Shown here: in pieces, positions 13,242-58,968 of the stretch | How positions within the stretch are numbered: the first letter of the stretch is position 1 | Layout of the letters: every line of letters begins with the position of its first letter | Assembly (NCBI GenBank): GCA_000092065.1 | Contig: CP000587.1 | DNA length: 64,000 bases | Direction: 5' to 3' (one strand) | From: Ostreococcus lucimarinus | Lineage: Eukaryota | The notes under the pieces: model-generated | Database searches by the model: none | Told to the model about the DNA's origin: nothing | The model's input: the letters and a program-made list of their open reading frames with translations, nothing else | Position numbers and translations under genes: made by a program

Positions 13242-16200
13242 ATGGCGGTGGGAACGCGACGGGAGCGCGATGCGTCGCGAATGTCGCGCGCGCACGACGC
13301 GGATGACGCCGCGGACGCGCGACCGTGGCGATGGCGGCGATGCGGGACGTTTCACGCGTCCGAGGGAGGGATTTGGGGGACGAGCGGGACGACGACGGCG
13401 CGCGCGGCGACGCGATGGGAAAACGCGCCGCTGGAGGGGTTCGGTTTGCGCTTCGCGAGCGATGCGGAGGAGGAGACGACGACGCGCGCGCGAGCGTTGG
13501 AGGCGTGCGCGAGAGAAACGCTCGGAGAGGGCGGGTTGACGAATGAGATGTTGGAGGAGACGGCGCGCGCGACGACGACGCCGAGCGCGGCGAGCGACGA
13601 CGCGGCGACGATTTCGAACATCGAGACGCGGTTGGCGTCGACGCGCGCGATGTTGAGGGGATTGGGCGTCGATGAAGCGAAAACGAAAGCGGTGATGGCG
13701 CGGGCGATGGACGCGTGGGGAGGGGAGATTCGAGAACGCGAACGAATCGTCGACGCGCTGGAGACGCGCTTGCTCGAGGGAGACGAGGACGAGGAGGCGT
13801 TGAATTACATCTTGCGTCGTGCGGTGGCGCGGTTGAGGGTTTTGAAGACGAGTGGAGCTCGTTCGAGGGTCGGCTTGCGGGCGTGTGTGGCGAGCGCGAC
13901 GGCGTCCGTCGCCGCGGCGTCCACCACCGCGGCCGTCGCGGCAAAGTCTACGCCCATCGCGAAGAAAGGCCGCGGTGGAATGTTCTCTTGCTGCGGCGCA
14001 GATTCGACGGCGATCGATGACGACGCTCAAGAGCTCGCGTACGCGCCTTCGGAAAGTGCAGCCGTTGAATGCGAACCGCTTACTTGCGTCGTACGTCTTT
14101 CACGCGTTGGGGAAGAAACGGCGAGCGCATACTCGTCGACATCTCGCGCATACTCGTCGACATCTCGCGCATCTTCGCGAGAAGGAGGCGTTTTGTTCAA
14201 CGCCACGACTCCGTTATTGACCGTTTCCGAAGATGACACGATTGAGTTCAACTTTTACGCGGGCGACGCGCACGAATCCGTCGACGAGAGTGCAGTCGAT
14301 GCGAATGATAGGATGCGCGCCAACGCCGTCATGTCGCCGCACGTCGGGGAAACAAGTGGCAAGATTAGAGGAAGCGCCACCATTTGTGTCGCAGATTTAG
14401 CAGAGACGACGAGAAAAGACGAACCGCACGTGCTCACGATTTTCATCGAGCGGCCGAAGAGTGGAGGGTCACCGGGTCAGGTCTACGGTAAAGCAATCGT
14501 ACGCATTGACAAGTTCGTCGAATCGTTTGACGACGGAACGACGCAGATCGCGACGGCGAAGGGCGACGTTCTGAAAGATGCCGCCGTGCTTTTCGCGGCG
14601 CTCGACAAGTCGAGTGTGCCAAATGTAAAACAGCTTGTGCGCAGCTTCGTGGATCAGCGCGGCGCATGCCCGTCCATTGCTGCACTGGCCGAAATGATTA
14701 CGCTTTGCATTGATTGGCGACTCGAACGCCCGCAACTTGATAGATTACGCCACTGCACAATGGAAGTGTTCGCGGCAATTGCGGTGAATCGAATTACGGC
14801 GAGTGAGAAGCAGCGGTTTGACGAACTTTCCGCGCTCATGTCGAAACAACTAGAAACAGAGCTGTGCAATATTTTGCCGACGGCAAAAGTCGCCGAGCAA
14901 GAACTCGTCGATGTGCTTGACATGGAGTATTCTGCCAGTATCGCCCGCGCGATCATTCCATTATTTGCTTTGACCCTTGGGAGCATTTCAGCCACTCGGC
15001 TCGTGTTGCGGTTGAAAAAGGTCGTTCGCGAGGCCATGCGTAAACGTTGTGTCGAGCACATGGTGAGGGAAAATCCGACAAAGGGCCCTCCCACGGTTGC
15101 GTGCGTGACGTCTATGATATGCAAACTCACCAAACGTTTGCCGCTCGACGCTGCGATTTTATCGCAGTTTCCGTCCGAAGTAGAAGCTCTTTCGGAGGCT
15201 GCGTCGGCGTCGAGTGCTTTCATCGCAAACATTATTACTGAAGTATTTCAGGCGATCGCGAGCATGCGTAGCCCGCCTGATTACGACTCCGGGATGATGG
15301 CACTAGACGATGCGCTGTGCGCGCACAGGAGGGCATTAAAGCGATATGATTTGGTGCTTGCTATGCAGCCGATTTCGTCCCGGTTCATCGATCGGCTCCT
15401 TCAGCCGGCTTTGGATGAAACGCTAGGCACAGTACACCATGCGCTGGTTGCGTGGGTCAAGCAAGAAATTGATGGCGAAAGAACAAATTTAGAGCCCGTG
15501 GACGTCGAAAGAGGAGCGATGCACAGTATGTCGTGCGTCAATCTTTTTTGTGTACTCTACAACATCGATAGAGCAGCGCAAGATCACATTCTTCACGGCG
15601 AAAGAGCGGCGTTCAACGCTACATCGTTGAGTCAAATGTGCTATGAAGTGTTTAAGACGTACGTCAATATTTATGAAAGAGCGTGCTTGGAGGCGATCCA
15701 GAACGCGCGCTTGCATTTGATGCAAGACTCAAAGGGGCAGAATACGAAGACGGCGAATGTTTCGGACGTAAAGTCTCTGATGGTTGGTAACTTTTACACG
15801 CGTCTAAGTAATATTCATCAGTGCATCCTCGCGATCGAACCGTTCATGGAAGAGATGCCGTTACTGTGGTGTTCGTCAAAGTCGGAGTTCGACGAGACAC
15901 TCAAGCGTCAAGCGAGCTCGGAGTATGGTATCGATGACGATCAAGTGATATTGTTTGAGGACGATGAAGTCCATGTCTTCGACGAGAAAAGAATGCTGGA
16001 TACTGATTTCTTCGCGAACAGAATTGTACAGAAACTTCGCACCGTTCGCGCAAACGTCATTGCGTCATTAACGGAGTTGATCGAAGAACGGATTGCACCG
16101 TTTATTCGTGTCGCTATTCTTGACAAGGAAGAAAAGACACGTTCTGCGGCGGTACGCATAGTCTTCATGATGATTGACTCGGAGCTCAAGCTTATGAACG

Positions 16201-17498
16201 AGAGGCTTGCGCCAGGGGCGTTTCGACTGGCGTTGTCTTCGATGCACAAAGGGGTGTGTGATGCGATCGAACAACTCATCCTACACAGACCGATAGAGGA
16301 GGGAGCGCTAGAAGCCAGTGAGCGTTGGAGAGGATTACCAACGCTCACAGAAATGCAACATTCCTTAGTCGTCGAGCTCATGGCAGATGTCAGAGAATTC
16401 TTCCACTGCGACGGTGCCGGCGAGCCTGAGTCAATTCTCAAGGATGGCGAAGGCAGACTGCGCCGTTTGTTGAATTTATGGTTTACGCCCACGATCGAGA
16501 TTATGCGAGAATTCTGGCAGTTGAAAGAAGTATTGTCCCGATCGATCGTTTCGGCGCATGGCAAACAAATCCGACTGCGGTCGATCGGTGGAGTGGCCGT
16601 TCAAGACATCTTGCGCTTTTTGCGTCAGCGTTCAAACGACGCAACAGCAATGGATCTTTACAACGAACAGAGCATGCTGATTACGAAAATGAGTCTAAAA
16701 GCACTCTTTGGCGAACAGTTAATGAGTATCGACTCTTTACTCGGTGCCTGGGTTTGCCGCGATGGTTCTGGCTTAATAGGACGATTCTACATCACGGCTA
16801 CGCAATTGGCGTTTTCGACATCTGGAATGAGCATCGATCACCCGCACGACAGCCAGACAGCGGTCGTCCGAGAGATTCGCAGAATCGCGAACATCTCGCG
16901 TATCGATGCTGCTGATGGTACGCCTGGGCTTCGCATCACATTCGACGATCGTCGATCATTCACTTTCAGTGAATTCGGTGGAATGCACACCGAGTTAAAC
17001 ATTCAAGCTCGAGAGAGGGATTCGTGCGTCGCGGTGATTCGCACGAATCCTTGCTTCTTGCAGCGTCCGGTATTCATGCACGATATTCAAGTCGCACAAA
17101 TTTCAGATCATGCGTGCGAGACTTTAGATGAGGTTGTCAGCGTAGAAACGGCGCAGCGAATGGAGCCACCCACTCTGCCGGCGGATGAGGAAGTGATCGC
17201 CACGTGCGTCTGCGCGCGTGCGAACGGCTTAGCACGCGACTTGGGGAAGTTTACGGTGGCGAGCCAATCGTGCGTGTTTTTACCAGTCAACGGGTCAGGT
17301 CGTGGAGTGTTGTATAAGACTATGACGTCAACGAAGAGGATGCCACAGTTGCGGCCATTCGGTTGGAAGAATGCTGATATCATCATCCCGATACGACATT
17401 ACGAAGAACCCGTGTTGCGCTTGACGGGGATGACGCTCGTTGAAGCCCAGTCGGTTTTCGACGCACTGTCGAGCGCCATTACCGCTTACAAAAGTTAG
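13242..17498 (+). CDS. large uncharacterised protein (1418 aa); possible C2-like region, long helical middle, C-terminal PH/GRAM-like domain
   Basis: Uninterrupted 4.26-kb ORF with ordinary, lower-GC composition. C2-like stretch HVLTIFIERPKSGGSPGQVYGKAIVRIDKF. C-terminal LIGRFYITATQLAFSTSGMSI...GLRITFDDRRSFTFSEFG resembles PH/GRAM folds. The N-terminal 300 aa are low-complexity, so the true start may be downstream. Confidence 0.6.
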   Translation: MAVGTRRERDASRMSRAHDADDAADARPWRWRRCGTFHASEGGIWGTSGTTTARAATRWENAPLEGFGLRFASDAEEETTTRARALEACARETLGEGGLTNEMLEETARATTTPSAASDDAATISNIETRLASTRAMLRGLGVDEAKTKAVMARAMDAWGGEIRERERIVDALETRLLEGDEDEEALNYILRRAVARLRVLKTSGARSRVGLRACVASATASVAAASTTAAVAAKSTPIAKKGRGGMFSCCGADSTAIDDDAQELAYAPSESAAVECEPLTCVVRLSRVGEETASAYSSTSRAYSSTSRASSREGGVLFNATTPLLTVSEDDTIEFNFYAGDAHESVDESAVDANDRMRANAVMSPHVGETSGKIRGSATICVADLAETTRKDEPHVLTIFIERPKSGGSPGQVYGKAIVRIDKFVESFDDGTTQIATAKGDVLKDAAVLFAALDKSSVPNVKQLVRSFVDQRGACPSIAALAEMITLCIDWRLERPQLDRLRHCTMEVFAAIAVNRITASEKQRFDELSALMSKQLETELCNILPTAKVAEQELVDVLDMEYSASIARAIIPLFALTLGSISATRLVLRLKKVVREAMRKRCVEHMVRENPTKGPPTVACVTSMICKLTKRLPLDAAILSQFPSEVEALSEAASASSAFIANIITEVFQAIASMRSPPDYDSGMMALDDALCAHRRALKRYDLVLAMQPISSRFIDRLLQPALDETLGTVHHALVAWVKQEIDGERTNLEPVDVERGAMHSMSCVNLFCVLYNIDRAAQDHILHGERAAFNATSLSQMCYEVFKTYVNIYERACLEAIQNARLHLMQDSKGQNTKTANVSDVKSLMVGNFYTRLSNIHQCILAIEPFMEEMPLLWCSSKSEFDETLKRQASSEYGIDDDQVILFEDDEVHVFDEKRMLDTDFFANRIVQKLRTVRANVIASLTELIEERIAPFIRVAILDKEEKTRSAAVRIVFMMIDSELKLMNERLAPGAFRLALSSMHKGVCDAIEQLILHRPIEEGALEASERWRGLPTLTEMQHSLVVELMADVREFFHCDGAGEPESILKDGEGRLRRLLNLWFTPTIEIMREFWQLKEVLSRSIVSAHGKQIRLRSIGGVAVQDILRFLRQRSNDATAMDLYNEQSMLITKMSLKALFGEQLMSIDSLLGAWVCRDGSGLIGRFYITATQLAFSTSGMSIDHPHDSQTAVVREIRRIANISRIDAADGTPGLRITFDDRRSFTFSEFGGMHTELNIQARERDSCVAVIRTNPCFLQRPVFMHDIQVAQISDHACETLDEVVSVETAQRMEPPTLPADEEVIATCVCARANGLARDLGKFTVASQSCVFLPVNGSGRGVLYKTMTSTKRMPQLRPFGWKNADIIIPIRHYEEPVLRLTGMTLVEAQSVFDALSSAITAYKS

Positions 17499-17575
17499 AC
17501 GTCAAAAACGCGAAAGAACAGCAGAGTAGCGGTGTGATATATCATTATGTAGTCGTAGCAAATCGTGTTTCATAT

Positions 17576-20500
17576 CTACGCTGCGTCCAATTCAACAGTC
17601 AACACGGCGAGGTTGTCGTTTATGATGGATGAGTACGTTTCGACGGCATCTGGCAAAATCTCTTCGAGCGCTGAAATGAGCTTTTGCGTTTGTTTGAGCC
17701 AGTCGATTGCTTCCTTCGTTCGCATCGATCTCTCATGTCGAACGGCACGGTTGAAACAAGTTGAGAGCAACCACTGCGCTTCCACTGGGGGATATGAAGG
17801 ATGCAGTGCGAGGAACTCTTCGGCCGAGTCGTAAAGCGAGTGAATCACGTCGTCTTTGCTTTTGTACACTCGCGAAGCGAGTTGAATTTGTTTACGCATT
17901 AATCGCGCGATGAGAGCAACGTCTTGAATCAAATACTTCTTCATAGCTTTCCCAACCGCTTCATATGCTCTCGAAACGGTGACCAAATCAGACGTTCTCA
18001 TCGCCGCGCCGCGGTCGGCAATCATCAAGAGCGTGTTTATTGAAGCTTCGTCATCCAACGTCTTTGTCGATAATATTTCGATTATTTTGCCTTGCAACGC
18101 GACGTCACGCTGGGCGCAAGCGATTTCATATTCAAGGACACTCGCAACCTTTCGCAACTCTTCGTACCTTTCCTCTTCAGCGTTTTTCAACAAGCTGTGG
18201 AGATTGGCCATCGCACCCTTTGAGCGGGCGATATTCTTCGCTTCGCGTTCTTTCCGAGATTGTTCGTCTCCTACATCAGTAGCTGGGTTATAGCTGGTGA
18301 GCGATGCGATGGACAACAGAAGCGCGACTGCTTGTCGATAGCCATACTCTGCACGATCGTCTGCATCCAAACCTTCTGGAATCTTGTTTAATTTGGAAAT
18401 CACAAGCGCACATAAAAACATAAACTGATAGGCCGCTTCTGTTTCTGACGACTTTTCGTACGCGTCGAGGCCAGTATTCCACGAAAAGTCGGCGAGATAC
18501 CGTGCCTGTCGAACATCTGTGAGAAGATTCAAATTCGACGCTCGCTTCATGAACTCGCTGAACAACTCGGCTGATTCAGAAAACGTCTTCGAGTCAAAGT
18601 CACCCATTTTGGCCATTTTTACGTGTCGCAGATAACTGCAAAATATAAAAGTCTCTTGCTTCATCATATTATCGGTACCCATATTGTTCAAAATCATATC
18701 GTAAAGGCTACGAAAAGCGTCTGCGGCCGTGGCGTGGTGCTTTGAGCCATCGAGTTCTCCCGCAACGTATAACAACGCATCAGATTCACCTGCCTTTGCA
18801 AACGTTCGAATCGATTCTCCCAGGCCCGAGACGTCGTCAGAAATGAGCTGAAACTTTACGTTCAACAATGTTGTGGACACATCCGTCGCGGTCTTGTCCG
18901 CCAGCAAACTTCGCAGCGACTCCTTTGCTTGTTCGATATCGCCATTCTCGAGATCGCACATCACTTGCAGCCGGATAACCGGTACCGCTGCGTTGCTCAC
19001 GGTCTTCGACTTTCTTTGTGACGATAATGGGAGCGTCATACCAAACAGTTTTCGTGCCAGTGAGTACTTATTTTGCATGTACATGTCAGATGCAGCGTTC
19101 CAGATGATGGCGTATGCACGAGATTGCCCGTCGCGAGAAAAACCGATTTCCTTGAAACTATCGGTATCTGTAAGAAGTCGATCCATATAAGACAGAACAT
19201 CGTTTGCTACTTGTTCATCTACAGTGAGCGTCGTATCCAGTAGAGCTTCAAAGATATCAGTAATCATTTCTTGTCGTCTCGCCTTTGGACAGCCGCTCAG
19301 TCGTTTGGCGAGCGGAGCGATGCACGACGCAACGGCGCCAGCGCCGCATTCGCTCTTCGCCAGATTGACACAGCACGTATGGAGGACATTCACAACAGAG
19401 TTTTCATCGTTGAGTACATTTTCGAGTATGCTGCACGCTTTCGAAATCTCACCACTCCCTGAGAACGCTTCAATCAGCATGTTGTCCATGAGAAACGATT
19501 CGGTTAACGCCTGCAAATCGCGAGCCAAGACGTTATCACTATTTTCACACTTTTTCGCGTAAGACTTGATTATTTTCATTTTATCCAACACTTTAAGAGC
19601 CTCGTTGTACCTTCTTCCGTGAATGAATAGTCTGGCAAGGTTATGCAAGATGCGAATGTACAAACCATCGGCGCGAACCAGGCGGTGGTCCTCGCACACG
19701 AGTTTCTCATCTAAATCAAAGTGCGCCGCGTTATCTTGATGGGAAGACGTCGACCAAGAATTCGGAGTGATCGTGAACAAGTCGTAGTATGCTGCGATTA
19801 GCTCTTTGACGAGGAAACCAACTTTTCTGTCGAACACGGCTTCGTCATCTGCTGATTGAAGCTTTTCTGAAACCACGAAATTCTCAGCCAAGTTTATCTT
19901 CGCGCTGATCAATGTCGTTACGCACATAGTCTCATTTCCTTTATTCTTTTCGCTTTCAGAAAGCGATTTGGCGTCTTGAAAAAAGTCCCGAGCACCGGCG
20001 ACGTTGCCGAGATAAAAACAGTTCTTTGCGCGTGACGTGGCGGCTTCAATCGTCTGTAACATTGTCTCGGCGTCGAATTCGCCATTTCGGTTCAAGAACG
20101 AATTACCGTATGATTCACCGATCACGAACTGCTCTTCCGCCGCCTTGAACTCACCCGCATCGTGCAGCAACTTTGCGAGCGTCAAGTGATTTGAAATGCC
20201 GACAGCGAGACTCGAAATTTCAGGCGCCCCAGCGCTCACAGCGAAGCCATCCGCAAATCCCAACGCGGCGTCCAGCAACTCACACGCGAAGTACCTCAAA
20301 TCAAGCAACGGACCAATCATTTCCTTCTTCACAATCCCGCTTTCCGCCGTCGTCTCCAACGCCGTTTTCTCGATTGCGAAATTCCAGCATCGTTGCGACA
20401 TGTGCCTCGCTAAATCGCTCGCCTTCGTCGCATTCGTCGACCACAAATCTCGCAATCGCTCACTCACCCGCCGCACCTCACTCACCGTATTCGTCATCTC

Positions 20501-20938
20501 ATCCTCGCTCGATATTCTCTTCGCCAATTCCGCGCGCTTCAAAGAATCATGAAACGTCGTCCAGACATCATCCATCGCGTCGCGCTCCGGCGTCTCCGAT
20601 CTCGCCGCGCCGCGCGTCTTCGTTGTCTCCGAGACGCCACCATCCTCCGCACCCGCTCCGTCGCTCTCGCGCCGCTCCAGCCCCGCGCCTATAGAAACTT
20701 CGCTCAAAGAAATATCCATCAGCGCTTCCGCGCCTTTTCGAGCGCCCGTCGGCGTCGCATCGCGCGGTGCCGTCCTCGTTTCGTCGCGTTTGCGTTTCGG
20801 TCCGGAATCGCTCCCAGAGTGCGTGGTTTCGCTTTTCGACGCCGCGGGCGACGCGGTCGACGCGGGTGCGTCGTCAGCGCGAGGTGGATCCGATGTGTCG
20901 GTATCGGTTCGTTTGAACGGGCTCTGGAAACCCGGCAT
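17576..20938 (-). CDS. large helical/TPR-like repeat protein (1120 aa), uncharacterised
   Basis: Uninterrupted 3.36-kb ORF of normal, lower-GC composition, predicted all-alpha with repeated amphipathic helices. The N-terminal 120 aa are S/T/P/D-rich and disordered. No catalytic motifs. Confidence 0.55.
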   Translation of the reverse strand: MPGFQSPFKRTDTDTSDPPRADDAPASTASPAASKSETTHSGSDSGPKRKRDETRTAPRDATPTGARKGAEALMDISLSEVSIGAGLERRESDGAGAEDGGVSETTKTRGAARSETPERDAMDDVWTTFHDSLKRAELAKRISSEDEMTNTVSEVRRVSERLRDLWSTNATKASDLARHMSQRCWNFAIEKTALETTAESGIVKKEMIGPLLDLRYFACELLDAALGFADGFAVSAGAPEISSLAVGISNHLTLAKLLHDAGEFKAAEEQFVIGESYGNSFLNRNGEFDAETMLQTIEAATSRAKNCFYLGNVAGARDFFQDAKSLSESEKNKGNETMCVTTLISAKINLAENFVVSEKLQSADDEAVFDRKVGFLVKELIAAYYDLFTITPNSWSTSSHQDNAAHFDLDEKLVCEDHRLVRADGLYIRILHNLARLFIHGRRYNEALKVLDKMKIIKSYAKKCENSDNVLARDLQALTESFLMDNMLIEAFSGSGEISKACSILENVLNDENSVVNVLHTCCVNLAKSECGAGAVASCIAPLAKRLSGCPKARRQEMITDIFEALLDTTLTVDEQVANDVLSYMDRLLTDTDSFKEIGFSRDGQSRAYAIIWNAASDMYMQNKYSLARKLFGMTLPLSSQRKSKTVSNAAVPVIRLQVMCDLENGDIEQAKESLRSLLADKTATDVSTTLLNVKFQLISDDVSGLGESIRTFAKAGESDALLYVAGELDGSKHHATAADAFRSLYDMILNNMGTDNMMKQETFIFCSYLRHVKMAKMGDFDSKTFSESAELFSEFMKRASNLNLLTDVRQARYLADFSWNTGLDAYEKSSETEAAYQFMFLCALVISKLNKIPEGLDADDRAEYGYRQAVALLLSIASLTSYNPATDVGDEQSRKEREAKNIARSKGAMANLHSLLKNAEEERYEELRKVASVLEYEIACAQRDVALQGKIIEILSTKTLDDEASINTLLMIADRGAAMRTSDLVTVSRAYEAVGKAMKKYLIQDVALIARLMRKQIQLASRVYKSKDDVIHSLYDSAEEFLALHPSYPPVEAQWLLSTCFNRAVRHERSMRTKEAIDWLKQTQKLISALEEILPDAVETYSSIINDNLAVLTVELDAA

Positions 20939-48158: not shown

Positions 48159-48538
48159 CGTCGCGCGTCGCGCGTCTTCGAGAGGTGCGTGTTTTTATTC
48201 GCGCGCGCGCGTCGTCGTCGGCGTCGCGTCGTCGGCGTCGTCGTGTGTCGCGTCGCGCGCGCGATCGGCGTCGGGACACGTCATCGGGTCCGTGTTCTTA
48301 ATGTTCGCAGAGTTCATTCGATTGAATGCACGCAATCGCGCGAACGAGTCGAAATTCAACACCCCGACGCGCCGACGCGTCGCATTTCGCGAACCCTGCG
48401 TGTTCTCGTGCGCGATATTTTAGTCCGTGTGCTAATTGTTAATTATTAATGATGATGCATACGTGGCGCGCGCGGGCGGGCGTCGCGTGGGATGGAACGT
48501 CGCGGCCGATTCGAGACGTCGGAGGATGTCGAGTGATT

Positions 48539-49015
48539 TCACGAGTGCACGCTGACGGCCTGCGTGCGATCGAGCAAGGGATGCACGATCGCGTACACCA
48601 AATCCACCGAACACGTGAACAGCACCAACGCCGCGTACAGCACGACGATCGACCTCGAATCGTCCACGCGCAAGTCGCCGTCGAAGTCGACGCGTCGGCA
48701 CGCGTCCACGCGCCTCCGGTGCAGCACCGCGAGCTCGATCGCGGCCAAGATGCAAGATCCGTAGATGATCGCCCCGAACGCGATCGGCACCTTGCCGCCG
48801 CGGCCGACGGCCGTTAATCCGACGCCCGTCAGCGTCATGACGCCGAGAAAGTTGAGCGAACTGTAAAACGTGCGCTCGAGCGCGAGCAGCGTCACGGCGT
48901 CGCAGCTCGCGCGGACGTCGCCGTCGTCGTCATCGCCGCGAATCGCGCGTTTCGCCTTGCCGAACGACCGAATCATCGCTCGTCGCGCGCGCGTCCGAGT
49001 GCGCGCGCGCGCCAA
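48539..49015 (-). CDS. DUF202 (YidH-like) small membrane protein
   Basis: 158 aa. LALERTFYSSLNFLGVMTLTGVGLTAVG matches the DUF202 N-E-R-T-F-L-A-W-x-R-T motif, followed by two further TM helices. Confidence 0.45.
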   Translation of the reverse strand: MARARTRTRARRAMIRSFGKAKRAIRGDDDDGDVRASCDAVTLLALERTFYSSLNFLGVMTLTGVGLTAVGRGGKVPIAFGAIIYGSCILAAIELAVLHRRRVDACRRVDFDGDLRVDDSRSIVVLYAALVLFTCSVDLVYAIVHPLLDRTQAVSVHS

Positions 49016-49203
49016 TCGTCATTTAATTCTCATGCGCCCGCGCGTCGATCCAGATCGCGCGCGCACTGATCCCTTAACGATGCATCATTATACGTACTCA
49101 TAATGCGTATAATGATGTATCGTAGTGCTATCCGTCTGCATCTCGACGACGTCCCGGCGCCCGCGGCGGCGCGCCGCGCACCGCGACGCGACGACGGGCG
49201 ACG

Positions 49204-53982: not shown

Positions 53983-54255
53983 GGCGTCGTAGTCGTTGTC
54001 GAAATCGTCCGGGTTTTTCGGCGCCCGCGTCGCGCGGCAGCGCGCGCGTTGTCGTCGCCGACGATGCCGCTCTGGACGACCGCGCGGCGCGACGGACGCG
54101 CCGCGCGACGCGCGCGCGACGCGCGACGCGGGCGGCGACGACGTCGTCGTCGTCGACGACGACGTCGACGCGACCGGGCGCGCGCGCGCGCGCTCCATCG
54201 CGCCGCGCTCGACTCTGCGGCGTCGTCGTCGAATCGACACTCGCTGACGCGCGCG

Positions 54256-54834
54256 ATGGCGCGCTCGAGCGTCGACCGCGCGCTCGACCGCGTCGCGCGC
54301 GTCGCGAGTCACGTCGACGCGTCGTCCGCGACTCGCGACGACGCGCGCGACGCGCGCGCGCGCGCGATGGCGGCGTACGTCGCGGAAAACGCCGCGGGCG
54401 CGGTGGTGCACGCGAGCGACGACGCGACGCCGTGGATCGACGTCGATCAGCGCCGCATCGACGCCTTCGCGACGTGCGCGAACGATCATCAATACATACA
54501 CGCGCGCGACGCCCCGGGCGGGGCGATCGCGCACGGATTCTTGACGCTGAGCCTGCTGACGCCCGCGACGGCGGCGCGCACGACGCCCGCGTGGTCGACG
54601 CGCGCCGTCAATTACGGCCTCAATCGCGTCCGTTTCGTCCGACCCGTGCGCGCGGGCGCGCGCGTCCGCGCGCGGGCGATCAAAATCGTCGCCGCGCGCG
54701 CGTTACCCGACGCCGCGGGCGCGGAAACGGAGTATTTAGTCGAATTAGAAACCGCGCCGAGCGCGTCGTCGGCGTCCGCCGAGCGCGCCGAGCTCGCCTT
54801 GGTCGCGTCTTGGATCGTCCGTCACTACGTCTGA
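54256..54834 (+). CDS. MaoC-like (R)-hydratase / hotdog-fold protein
   Basis: IDAFATCANDHQYIHARDAPGGAIAHGFLTLSLL is the MaoC dehydratase motif (DxN/HxxHxD...GxIAHG). The ORF is open from 54049, but the upstream part is poly-Arg junk; ATG at 54256-54258 (MARSSVDRAL..). Confidence 0.7.
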   Translation: MARSSVDRALDRVARVASHVDASSATRDDARDARARAMAAYVAENAAGAVVHASDDATPWIDVDQRRIDAFATCANDHQYIHARDAPGGAIAHGFLTLSLLTPATAARTTPAWSTRAVNYGLNRVRFVRPVRAGARVRARAIKIVAARALPDAAGAETEYLVELETAPSASSASAERAELALVASWIVRHYV

Positions 54835-54970
54835 CGTCCCGCGCTCGCGCGTCACCGCGTAACCAAATAACCCTAGTTTAGCTCTGTTTCGTTTCGTCTT
54901 CGATCCATCGTTCGTCGCGTGCCGTTCGGCGCTCGCGTCCGCCGCGCTCGCGTCCGCCGCGGCGTCTCCA

Positions 54971-55014
54971 GATGTGACGAATGTGCCGCGGTGACGCGGC
55001 ACATTCGTCACATC
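54971..55014. repeat. perfect inverted repeat (20-bp arms, 4-nt loop) forming a strong hairpin, preceded by a 15-bp direct repeat x2 (54931-54960)
   Basis: gatgtgacgaatgtgccgcg (54971-54990), gtga, cgcggcacattcgtcacatc (54995-55014). It lies ~137 nt after the MaoC stop and ~210 nt before the next plus-strand ORF. The six-frame track reads the same peptide (RCDECAA.TRHIRHI) on both strands here. Confidence 0.85.
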
Positions 55015-55224
55015 GAAGTGCCGCGCCGCTCGCGCGCGCGGCCACGACGACGGACGCGCGCGCGCGCGTCGACGACGACGACGACTCGAACGCGCGTCTC
55101 GACGCGGCTCGCCACGCGCGCGCTCGACCGCGCGGCGACGCGCGGCGCGCGCGTTCGTAAAACGGCACGCATTCGCGAGAATTGAATTGAAATTCAAGAC
55201 GCGCTCGACGACGACGACGCGCGG

Positions 55225-56238
55225 ATGGACGCGACGCGCGCGCGCGGAGGCGCGCGGATGGACGCGTGGCGCCCGATGATGACGCTGGACGCGCGAGACG
55301 GAGGCGCGATGGGCGCGGTGAGGACGATGCGGGACGGGACGACGCGAGGGGAAGGCGAGAGAGACGCGCGCGAGGGGACGCGCGCGAGAGGAACGACGAC
55401 GACGACGACGACGACGACGAGTTTGGACGCGTTCGACGCGCGGTTAGCGCGGGCGAGGGAAAGAGCGATGCTCGCGAGGGAAGAGACGGAACGCGTGGAG
55501 AAGTGGTTGCGAGACAGCGCGGCGGCGACGCGGCGAGGGGAAGGCGCGAGAGGCGAAGGCTCGAGAGGACGGCGGTCGGACGACGACGGAGGCGTGAAGA
55601 TGGCGATGGCGAGCGAGGAGGACGTCGAGGTCGAAGAGTATGATTATGGGGTGGAAGAAGAACGCGCGATGCGCTCGTCGATGGCGACGACGTTGGTGGC
55701 GAGGGAATCGATGTCCTCGTTGTTCGTGCCGCAGCGTTCGCCGGCGAGGTCGGTGATACACAGGCCGATACCGAGGCGGCCGCTGAGCGCGAGCGTGGAG
55801 GGCACGGAGTGGACGACTTTACGAGCGAAAGCGACACGATCAGGCGACACGCGCACGAACGTGTCGATAGTGAGCGATGAAGATGGTAGGAGCGCGTTTC
55901 AATCGCTCGCCAGGGACAACCGCGCCGGGCTGGACGGACTAGGCGACATGGTGGCGAGGACGACTATTTCGAGCGGCGTGCTCGACGACGGAGGGTTGGA
56001 CGGAGGAATGAGTACGCCGCCGCGACCGCACCGATCGCCGCTACGTCCACCGGTGGCTCGTCCGAGGAATCGCACACTGAGCGAGGATTTCTCTAGTCCC
56101 GTTCGCCTGTCGTCGTCGATGGAGCTGAGACATTCCACCAGCTCGCGCATGACGTTGTTAGAATCCGTCGCACACGAGGCAGAGTACGAACGCGCGCGTA
56201 TGTCTGAAAAGTCTTACGACGATAGCGAGCCTCGGTAA
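55225..56238 (+). CDS. hypothetical disordered protein (337 aa), low confidence
   Basis: ORF with mixed composition. The poly-Thr stretch is encoded by (acg)n at ~55393-55420. The C-terminal half is Ser/Pro/Arg-rich (..[39 protein letters not shown]..). Could be real or compositional. Confidence 0.25.
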   Translation: MDATRARGGARMDAWRPMMTLDARDGGAMGAVRTMRDGTTRGEGERDAREGTRARGTTTTTTTTTSLDAFDARLARARERAMLAREETERVEKWLRDSAAATRRGEGARGEGSRGRRSDDDGGVKMAMASEEDVEVEEYDYGVEEERAMRSSMATTLVARESMSSLFVPQRSPARSVIHRPIPRRPLSASVEGTEWTTLRAKATRSGDTRTNVSIVSDEDGRSAFQSLARDNRAGLDGLGDMVARTTISSGVLDDGGLDGGMSTPPRPHRSPLRPPVARPRNRTLSEDFSSPVRLSSSMELRHSTSSRMTLLESVAHEAEYERARMSEKSYDDSEPR

Positions 56239-58417: not shown

Positions 58418-58968
58418 CTCGACGTAGAGAGTTGTATTTTTTGTATCGATATTTTGAAAATTTGCTGCTCGTATTGGTGGATTTCGAGAGTCAAAAGTGC
58501 AGACAGCAACGTATGCGTCTTAAAGTCTTGATACTGCGACCTGTTCTTGGCTCAAAAGCGCAACAGCGTCGCCCTTTTTTTTTCGTTTTTTTCATGCACG
58601 TGATGGAGTCCATCACGCTAGTTTCTGGTCCGCAGTCGGCTCGCGGCGAGAGCATTCGTGATTCTCGCGGCGGCTGTGGACACCATGGTCGCGGTTGAGC
58701 GCATAGACAAAAGAAATACCGTCTCGCACCCCCCAATGGCGCCCGCCTATTGGTGCTATCGTATCGTTGCCGCGGGCCGCGTCAAAGCGTCGACGAGACG
58801 TCGCGATGAAATATCGCGACAGCTCGCTCGCGCTCGCGCGGCCCGCAGCTCGCTAAAAATGTTGTGCCTCTTCTCGTGCGCGCGCACGAGAAGACTCGCC
58901 AAAGAATTCTCATACCAAACGTATCCTCACTCACTGAGTTTGAAGTGCATACTTCATCGACGGAGCGA

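Follow-up and report, generated by a model that had tools for sequence, protein, structure and literature searches.

A perfect 44-bp palindrome in an intergenic spacer of Ostreococcus lucimarinus is most likely a recent mutational product of template switching at a hypermutable non-coding hotspot, and not a functional element. We analyzed it within a stretch of 64 000 nucleotides (hereafter the window) together with 34 marine metagenome contigs drawn from many studies and assemblers, a sample of 35 sequences in total. Between invariant anchors these sequences carried 11 alleles of 36–53 nt, to which the structural variation was confined. One side of the palindrome is an exact reverse complement of the other, and the hairpin is absent from the outgroup.

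The window codes for a DUF1995 protein, a rhomboid+UBA protein, a dsRBD protein, an ATR-type kinase and a PABP-like RRM/MLLE protein, and its genes are packed at about 200–400-bp spacing; the DNA is not bacterial but that of a compact marine green alga. Its GC content is 47–52% from 14001 to 20000, compared with about 60% elsewhere, across two very long ORFs, 13242–17498 (+) and 17576–20938 (–). The hairpin sits in a 390–470-nt spacer between two same-strand nuclear genes (Table 1). The distances given in the preliminary description of this DNA were right: the stop codon of the MaoC gene lies 136 nt before the hairpin, and the next ATG-initiated ORF begins 210 nt after it. An exact-protein look-up of this 337-aa downstream ORF, as read from the window, returned no match because gene callers use a later start. 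Its sister-clade ortholog begins at the position equivalent to M29, and the alignment suggests that translation may in truth begin at 55309 (M29); codons 1–28 of the window ORF (55225–55309) are possibly a 5΄ leader and not coding. In a more distant relative, the downstream protein showed 56% identity over its C-terminal half.

Table 1. Features of the hairpin locus (positions in the window) and alleles typed at the hairpin site (number of contigs)
Feature or allele	Position or contigs	Strand	Description
Upstream gene	54256..54834	+	MaoC-like acyl dehydratase, 192 aa; annotated 155-aa form XP_001418756.1, O. lucimarinus CCE9901
Tandem duplication	54929..54961	.	GCGCTCGCGTCCGCC; 15 bp, 2.2 copies, 100% match (repeat finder)
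Left junction	54961..54970	.	GGCGTCTCCA
Palindrome left arm	54971..54990	.	GATGTGACGAATGTGCCGCG; putatively the derived arm
Loop	54991..54994	.	GTGA
Palindrome right arm	54995..55014	.	CGCGGCACATTCGTCACATC; putatively the older arm
Older hairpin	54995..55025	.	CGCGGCAC(A)TTCG / CGAAGTGCCGCG, loop TCACAT; right arm and right flank
Right-anchor block	55015..55041	.	GAAGTGCCGCGCCGCTCGCGCGCGCGG; directly 3΄ of hairpin, conserved between O. lucimarinus and sister clade
Conserved intergenic island	55168..55200	+	GCATTCGCGAGAATTGAATTGAAATTCAAG
Downstream gene	55225..56238	+	Conserved protein, no Pfam domain; 83% identical to sister-clade ortholog
Allele G	2 contigs		CAGATCGCCGCG-TCAC-CGCGGCACATTCGTCACATC; 6-bp stem
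Allele D	3 contigs		As G, loop GCAC
Allele J	1 contig		CAGAGTGCCGCG-TCAC-...; 8-bp arms
Allele F	3 contigs		Tandem duplication of ATTCGTCAC
Allele E	4 contigs		Tandem duplications of ATTCGTCAC and CGCGGCAC
Allele I (L043)	1 contig		8-bp arms, loop GTGA, ATTCGTCAC twice
L032 allele	1 contig		18-bp arms, loop TCAC, putatively ancestral left flank
Allele B	16 contigs		20-bp arms, loop TCAC, left flank CA to TGGA
Allele B΄	2 contigs		As B, one mismatch in right arm
Allele C	1 contig		As B with one added G; 21-bp arms, 3-nt loop
Allele A	window only		20-bp arms, loop GTGA, putatively ancestral left flank

Both the sequence and a repeat finder confirmed the hairpin as first described, with arms of 20 bp each, 100% complementarity and a 4-nt loop. 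The 15-bp direct repeat reported to precede it was also recovered (the earlier register, 54931–54960, denotes the same repeat as that in Table 1). This repeat showed no variation in 34/34 population contigs and was absent from the sister clade; it is an ordinary fixed tandem duplication lying beside the hairpin. We compared the palindrome with 100 dinucleotide shuffles of the whole window, in which the longest perfect short-loop arm measured 9–16 bp. Because an arm of 20 bp was never reached, the hairpin is not a chance product, as had been surmised. It is the longest perfect short-loop palindrome of the window, the runners-up having 14- and 13-bp arms, and the 20-mer arm is single-copy in the window, with no match in a separate set of 100 shuffles. 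The folding energies, whose calculation had been proposed earlier, were likewise extreme for RNA (–99.2 kcal/mol for 54900–55050, z = –7.2) and for DNA (–34 kcal/mol for the 69-nt core, z = –8.8).

The window as a whole has an excess of perfect short-loop palindromes: 16 with arms of at least 10 bp were observed, compared with 2.4 ± 1.6 in shuffled sequences, and five with arms of at least 12 bp, compared with 0.2. This excess, about 6-fold, derives partly from CG-repeat tracts.

A second, shorter hairpin overlaps the first (54995–55025; Table 1). It has a bulged 12-bp stem (z = –6.5), competes with the long 44-bp hairpin, and is present in all O. lucimarinus alleles but not in the sister clade, which suggests a serial growth of inverted repeats at this site.

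We searched the window for known RNA families and signals. Rfam models at their gathering thresholds matched nowhere in the whole window, and a permissive scan of 54700–55300 returned only generic miRNA-like matches of 17–30 bits, compared with cut-offs of 67–100 (the top match, MIR898, scored 30.2 bits against a cut-off of 75). A tRNA scan found nothing, and a bacterial promoter and terminator scan, which has little bearing on a eukaryotic host, found neither at the hairpin site. Coding on the minus strand was considered for the two ORFs that span the site (54878–55837 and 54745–55197) and rejected; they had no Pfam match, and the length differences among alleles were not multiples of three. 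Allele lengths differed by +9, +10, +12, +13 and +17 nt, and because such differences include non-multiples of three, the hairpin site is non-coding on either strand.

Proteins of the MaoC locus are present in hundreds of marine metagenome assemblies, and we typed the alleles of the sampled contigs between the anchors CGTCCGCCGCGGCGTCTC and GAAGTGCCGCGCCGC. The palindrome arms were at least 18 bp long in 21 of the 35 contigs and shorter in the other 14; the contigs are consensus sequences from a biased sample, and the counts given here are not population frequencies. The exact allele of the window, A, was found in none of the 34 other contigs. Arm lengths of 6, 8, 18, 20 and 21 bp were found in nature, together with both loop orientations: TCAC is carried by most wild alleles, including B, G, J and L032, and its reverse complement GTGA, a spacer inversion, is carried by the window allele and also, with 8-bp arms, by L043. 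Alleles D, E, F, G, I and J have no left arm. The right arm is unchanged in 8 of the 11 alleles; of the other three, B΄ has a single substitution there, and the ATTCGTCAC duplication alters or interrupts this arm in E and F.

This variability is sharply localized. The flanks, about 700 bp in all, are nearly invariant, with 2 variable columns out of 348 on the left and 20 out of 352 on the right. In a 17.7-kb alignment of 11 sequences (the window and ten contigs), the 50-column segment at the hairpin contained 38 variable columns; apart from an alignment-edge artefact this was the highest value of the alignment, whose overall variable fraction was 2.7%. The SNP haplotypes in the flanks did not separate palindrome from non-palindrome alleles, and allele B occurs with each of the four haplotypes that the two nearest SNPs can form; these haplotypes are accordingly unusable for counting events or dating alleles. 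One contig of 1118 nt (L034) diverges fully from all others past the equivalent of window position ~55100, after the conserved block; its end is probably chimeric or misassembled, and it was left out of the flank statistics.

The sister clade, whose MaoC protein is 89–90% identical, is fully syntenic at this locus, and its spacer is largely diverged except for two islands. One, TTCGCGTCACACCGAGACGCCGCGCCGCTCGCGCGCGCG, is homologous to the outer half of the right arm and the right flank. The other, GCATTCGCGAGAATTGAA..., is a block near the downstream gene; its counterpart at 55168–55200 in the window is, from the sequence, presumably the promoter or 5΄ leader of that gene. The alignment revealed neither a left-arm counterpart nor a hairpin in the sister-clade spacer, and the region folds no better than its shuffles (z = +0.3). 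In a relative with 60% MaoC identity (L047/L048) the locus is syntenic and the spacer is not alignable, and the contig of a deeper outgroup (P0008) stops at the MaoC gene, before the intergenic sequence. The spacer of L047 contains an unrelated perfect 10-bp hairpin (CTTCTTTTTG tgcc CAAAAAGAAG, L047 3677–3700) 122 nt past the MaoC stop codon, a position like that of the hairpin studied here.

Another spacer of the window behaves differently. The convergent spacer at 58418–58968 (compare L011 8130–8720), between the rhomboid+UBA and PABP-like genes, is ~96% identical to the sister clade, a conservation far above that of either the MaoC protein or its spacer. Several hairpins lie in this stretch, no Rfam family matches it, and it may represent a conserved non-coding RNA or a structured UTR. 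Within it lies a perfect 26-bp zero-loop palindrome (TCTTCTCGTGCGC|GCGCACGAGAAGA, 58869–58894), which, unlike the polymorphic 44-bp hairpin, was invariant in the population contigs checked and is kept in the sister clade.

The allele series can be explained by template switching as follows. The ancestral O. lucimarinus state would be the quasi-palindrome of allele G (...TCTCCAGAT-C-GCCGCG-TCAC-CGCGGC-ACATTCGTCAC-ATC...), with a 6-bp stem, a 4-nt loop and two unequal sides. During DNA synthesis, in replication or repair, the nascent strand would leave its template at the inverted repeat, copy the complementary or the nascent strand for ~20–30 nt and then return, so that the short left side is replaced by the exact reverse complement of the right side. 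If the copied tract included the loop, as in an intermolecular switch to a sister template, the loop would be inverted and allele A, with its 20-bp arms and GTGA, would result. If the loop lay outside the copied tract, as in an intramolecular switch, TCAC would be kept, and J (8 bp), L032 (18 bp), B (20 bp) and C (21 bp) would arise. Slippage also affects this site, as seen in the duplications of ATTCGTCAC and CGCGGCAC, and the locus thus behaves as a hypermutable hotspot with many alleles segregating in the wild.

The alleles fit this scheme in their details. An imperfect inverted repeat of the kind assumed is present in G and D, with stems of 6–7 bp, and in J, with 8 bp. Between G and A, 11 nt are replaced by 21 nt, all of which fall within a 30-nt exact reverse complement of the loop and right arm of G; this single copy would extend the arm from 6 to 20 bp and invert the loop. 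The change is thus a multinucleotide one that one event can account for, its segment being an exact reverse complement of the adjacent, putatively ancestral sequence. Similarly, L032 differs from G by one 18-nt reverse-complement copy in which the loop is not inverted, and C differs from B by one added base that makes the palindrome longer. In the opposite direction, the changes from A to G and from B to G are neither simple deletions nor reverse-complement copies, and neither A nor B is derivable from the other by one reverse-complement copy event. Allele B requires a second small complex change adjoining the palindrome, in which the junction CA (54969–54970) has become TGGA; a 7-nt reverse-complement copy explains it weakly. 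By parsimony over these sequences we estimate that at least four hairpin-perfecting or loop-flipping events may have occurred at the site, besides the slippage duplications, where the polarity of the alleles rests on parsimony and on one outgroup with an only partly alignable intergenic region.

Among the four readings offered in the preliminary description, only that of a replication or recombination hotspot survives, and it is supported: no other spot in the 17.7 kb of aligned population sequence comes near the hairpin in structural variability, and reverse-complement copying links its alleles. The other readings fared less well. We consider it unlikely that the hairpin is a functional structure raised by selection, whether a stability or 3΄-end element in the 3΄ UTR of the MaoC mRNA or an insulator between the two tandem genes. 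Its location past the MaoC stop codon, in a 390-nt spacer between same-strand genes, would suit such a role, as would the numerical predominance of long-arm alleles among the sampled contigs, the similarly placed hairpin of L047 and the excess of perfect short-loop palindromes in the window. However, that excess is equally expected from a template-switch mutational bias, the long stem is missing from 14 of the 35 natural sequences, no stem at all is present there in the sister clade, and the hairpin varies freely in the length of its arms and in the orientation of its loop. After the stem comes GAAGTGCC, with no T-run of the kind that marks an intrinsic (rho-independent) terminator, and the host is eukaryotic; together with the missing Rfam family at threshold, these observations speak against the proposed terminator or 3΄-end element. 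It is less likely still that a dimeric DNA-binding protein recognizes the palindrome and controls the downstream gene through it, in the manner of an operator or promoter element. It does lie 210–295 nt upstream of the start of that gene, and its arms hold a TGACG core, which we take to resemble a bZIP half-site. These half-sites, however, stand at the outer ends of the 44-bp palindrome, which is not dimer spacing. Both would be conserved in a cis-regulatory palindrome; hairpin-less natural alleles hold a single copy of the motif, the left arm being missing from 14 of the 35 contigs, and no copy is conserved in the sister clade. The conserved intergenic islands are elsewhere, at 55015–55041 and 55168–55200.

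A mobile element is a very improbable source. Perfect inverted repeats are typical of transposon ends, and excision of hAT-type elements leaves short palindromic footprints; the hairpin could in this way be a MITE, its terminal inverted repeats or an excision footprint left by hairpin-end repair. This reading, which had also been put forward, is largely refuted. The search for further copies of the arm showed that it is not dispersed: beyond its single copy in the window, a metagenome-wide scan gave six matches at this locus and three unrelated single-arm matches attributable to chance. No target-site duplication is present, the flanks (...GTCTCCA | element | GAAGTGC...) having no repeat in common, and there is no internal sequence, the 4-nt loop being already present in the short alleles. 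Unlike an empty transposon site, the 'empty' alleles keep one complete arm, the right one, and the loop, and the flank of the right arm is common to the sister clade. There remains an artefact of sequencing or of assembly, for instance a fold-back chimera or an ambiguity of the de Bruijn graph at the palindrome, which we find barely credible. Perfect palindromes do confuse short k-mer graphs, the loop orientation is ambiguous when k is smaller than the arm, and the exact allele of the window was seen once. Yet the same long palindrome was also assembled from many samples by SPAdes, by MEGAHIT (k127 and k141) and in the JGI and TARA pipelines, the alternative alleles differ in their flanks and tandem duplications as well as in loop orientation, and GTGA is found with arms of 8 bp too, short enough for any k-mer to span. 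This agreement among assemblers and projects, and the occurrence of GTGA with 8-bp arms, make an assembly artefact unlikely.

Template switching therefore stands as the preferred explanation of the hairpin, which would be dispensable in nature. The long-palindrome alleles form the majority (21/35) in our biased sample, and a selective advantage of these alleles is possible. We give a small chance to a more far-reaching proposal, namely that the site is an unusually active, recurrent template-switch hotspot in a wild haploid picoeukaryote, with the products of at least four independent hairpin-perfecting or loop-flipping events and their intermediates segregating, or that the long-stem alleles have risen through a function acquired between the tandem genes. 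If the former is true, the hotspot could report, in nature, how often template switches happen and in which direction the replication fork moves; if the long stem has acquired a function, the locus would show the birth of a structured element in progress.

Three other inverted repeats of the window were found to vary among the sequences compared. The hairpin GTCGCGAT-GAAAT-ATCGCGAC at ~58790–58812 (approximate coordinates, taken from the alignment) has in the sister clade a loop that is nearly its reverse complement (GTTTC), and L007 carries a 1-nt insertion there; it looks like another loop inversion and would fit with frequent template switching in this genome. At 54120–54169, which includes the palindrome CGACGTCGTCGTCG t CGACGACGACGTCG (54139–54167), eight haplotypes were present in 11 sequences, and the boundary between (GAC)n and (GTC)n moves with no change in length. 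This second inverted-repeat-associated hotspot lies in the arginine/aspartate-rich 5΄ part of a minus-strand gene, adjoining the divergent MaoC promoter. Finally, the SNP-rich intergenic region 48353–49126, with 5–8 haplotypes per 50 nt, includes a palindrome at 49083–49117 (CATCATTATACG...CGTATAATGATG). Its 12-bp arms are perfect in the window and in 5 of 10 contigs (L003, L004, L008, L009 and L010), the right arm has a mismatch in the other five, and the loop differs from that of the window in all ten (TACTCAGAATG versus TACTCATAATG).

These results indicate that, in a compact eukaryotic genome, even a conspicuous perfect hairpin may be neither a signal nor a mobile element; it can be a fresh footprint of template switching. 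Annotators would do well to look for polymorphism in long perfect palindromes before giving them a function. The consequence for Ostreococcus biology itself is small. The allele series, however, is an unusually complete natural record of a long perfect stem growing from a quasi-palindrome, and studies of mutation clusters and of how RNA hairpins originate depend on records of this kind. We found no description of template switching in Ostreococcus in the literature on its RNAi and population genomics.

Several known systems resemble the hairpin described here. MITEs and other short elements with terminal inverted repeats share its perfect repeats and intergenic location, and differ from it in copy number, target-site duplication, internal sequence and the state of their empty alleles. 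In plastid non-coding DNA, small inversions at hairpin loops are familiar, in which the loop flips between reverse-complement states and the stem is kept; the present locus is nuclear, and its arm length changes too. Template switching has been described as a general process by which perfect hairpins and loop inversions arise (PMC8794818; also PMC5453318, PMC10710096 and PMC7202029). The perfect hairpins and de novo miRNAs studied by Monttinen and Löytynoja (PMC8794818, PMC10710096) and by Löytynoja and Goldman (PMC5453318) likewise have a perfect stem of tens of bases formed in one event, as well as loop inversions. Our stem also appears miRNA-precursor-like to covariance models, here below threshold; unlike the de novo miRNA hairpins, it matches no RNA family at threshold and is known from DNA sequence alone.

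The closest likeness is to quasi-palindrome template switching as in the Ripley model, in which an imperfect inverted repeat is turned into a longer perfect one in a single step by copying of the other arm, an intermolecular switch inverts the spacer, and recurrent, reversible multinucleotide changes are confined to the repeat. Hotspots of this kind are known in E. coli (QP hotspots; PMC7202029), and natural yeast strains display both the homogenization or extension of inverted-repeat arms and spacer inversion (PMC8604942). In yeast REG2, arms of 5 bp became arms of 16 bp together with a spacer inversion (PMC8604942), a close parallel to the change from G to A proposed here, from 6 to 20 bp with loop inversion. 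In contrast to the yeast and E. coli cases, the present site is intergenic and belongs to a wild marine picoalga, its arms reach 20–21 bp, 11 alleles including intermediates were recovered at one site from metagenomes, and the mechanism is read from sequence comparison. The hairpin adds a new and well-documented case to a known class of mutation products.
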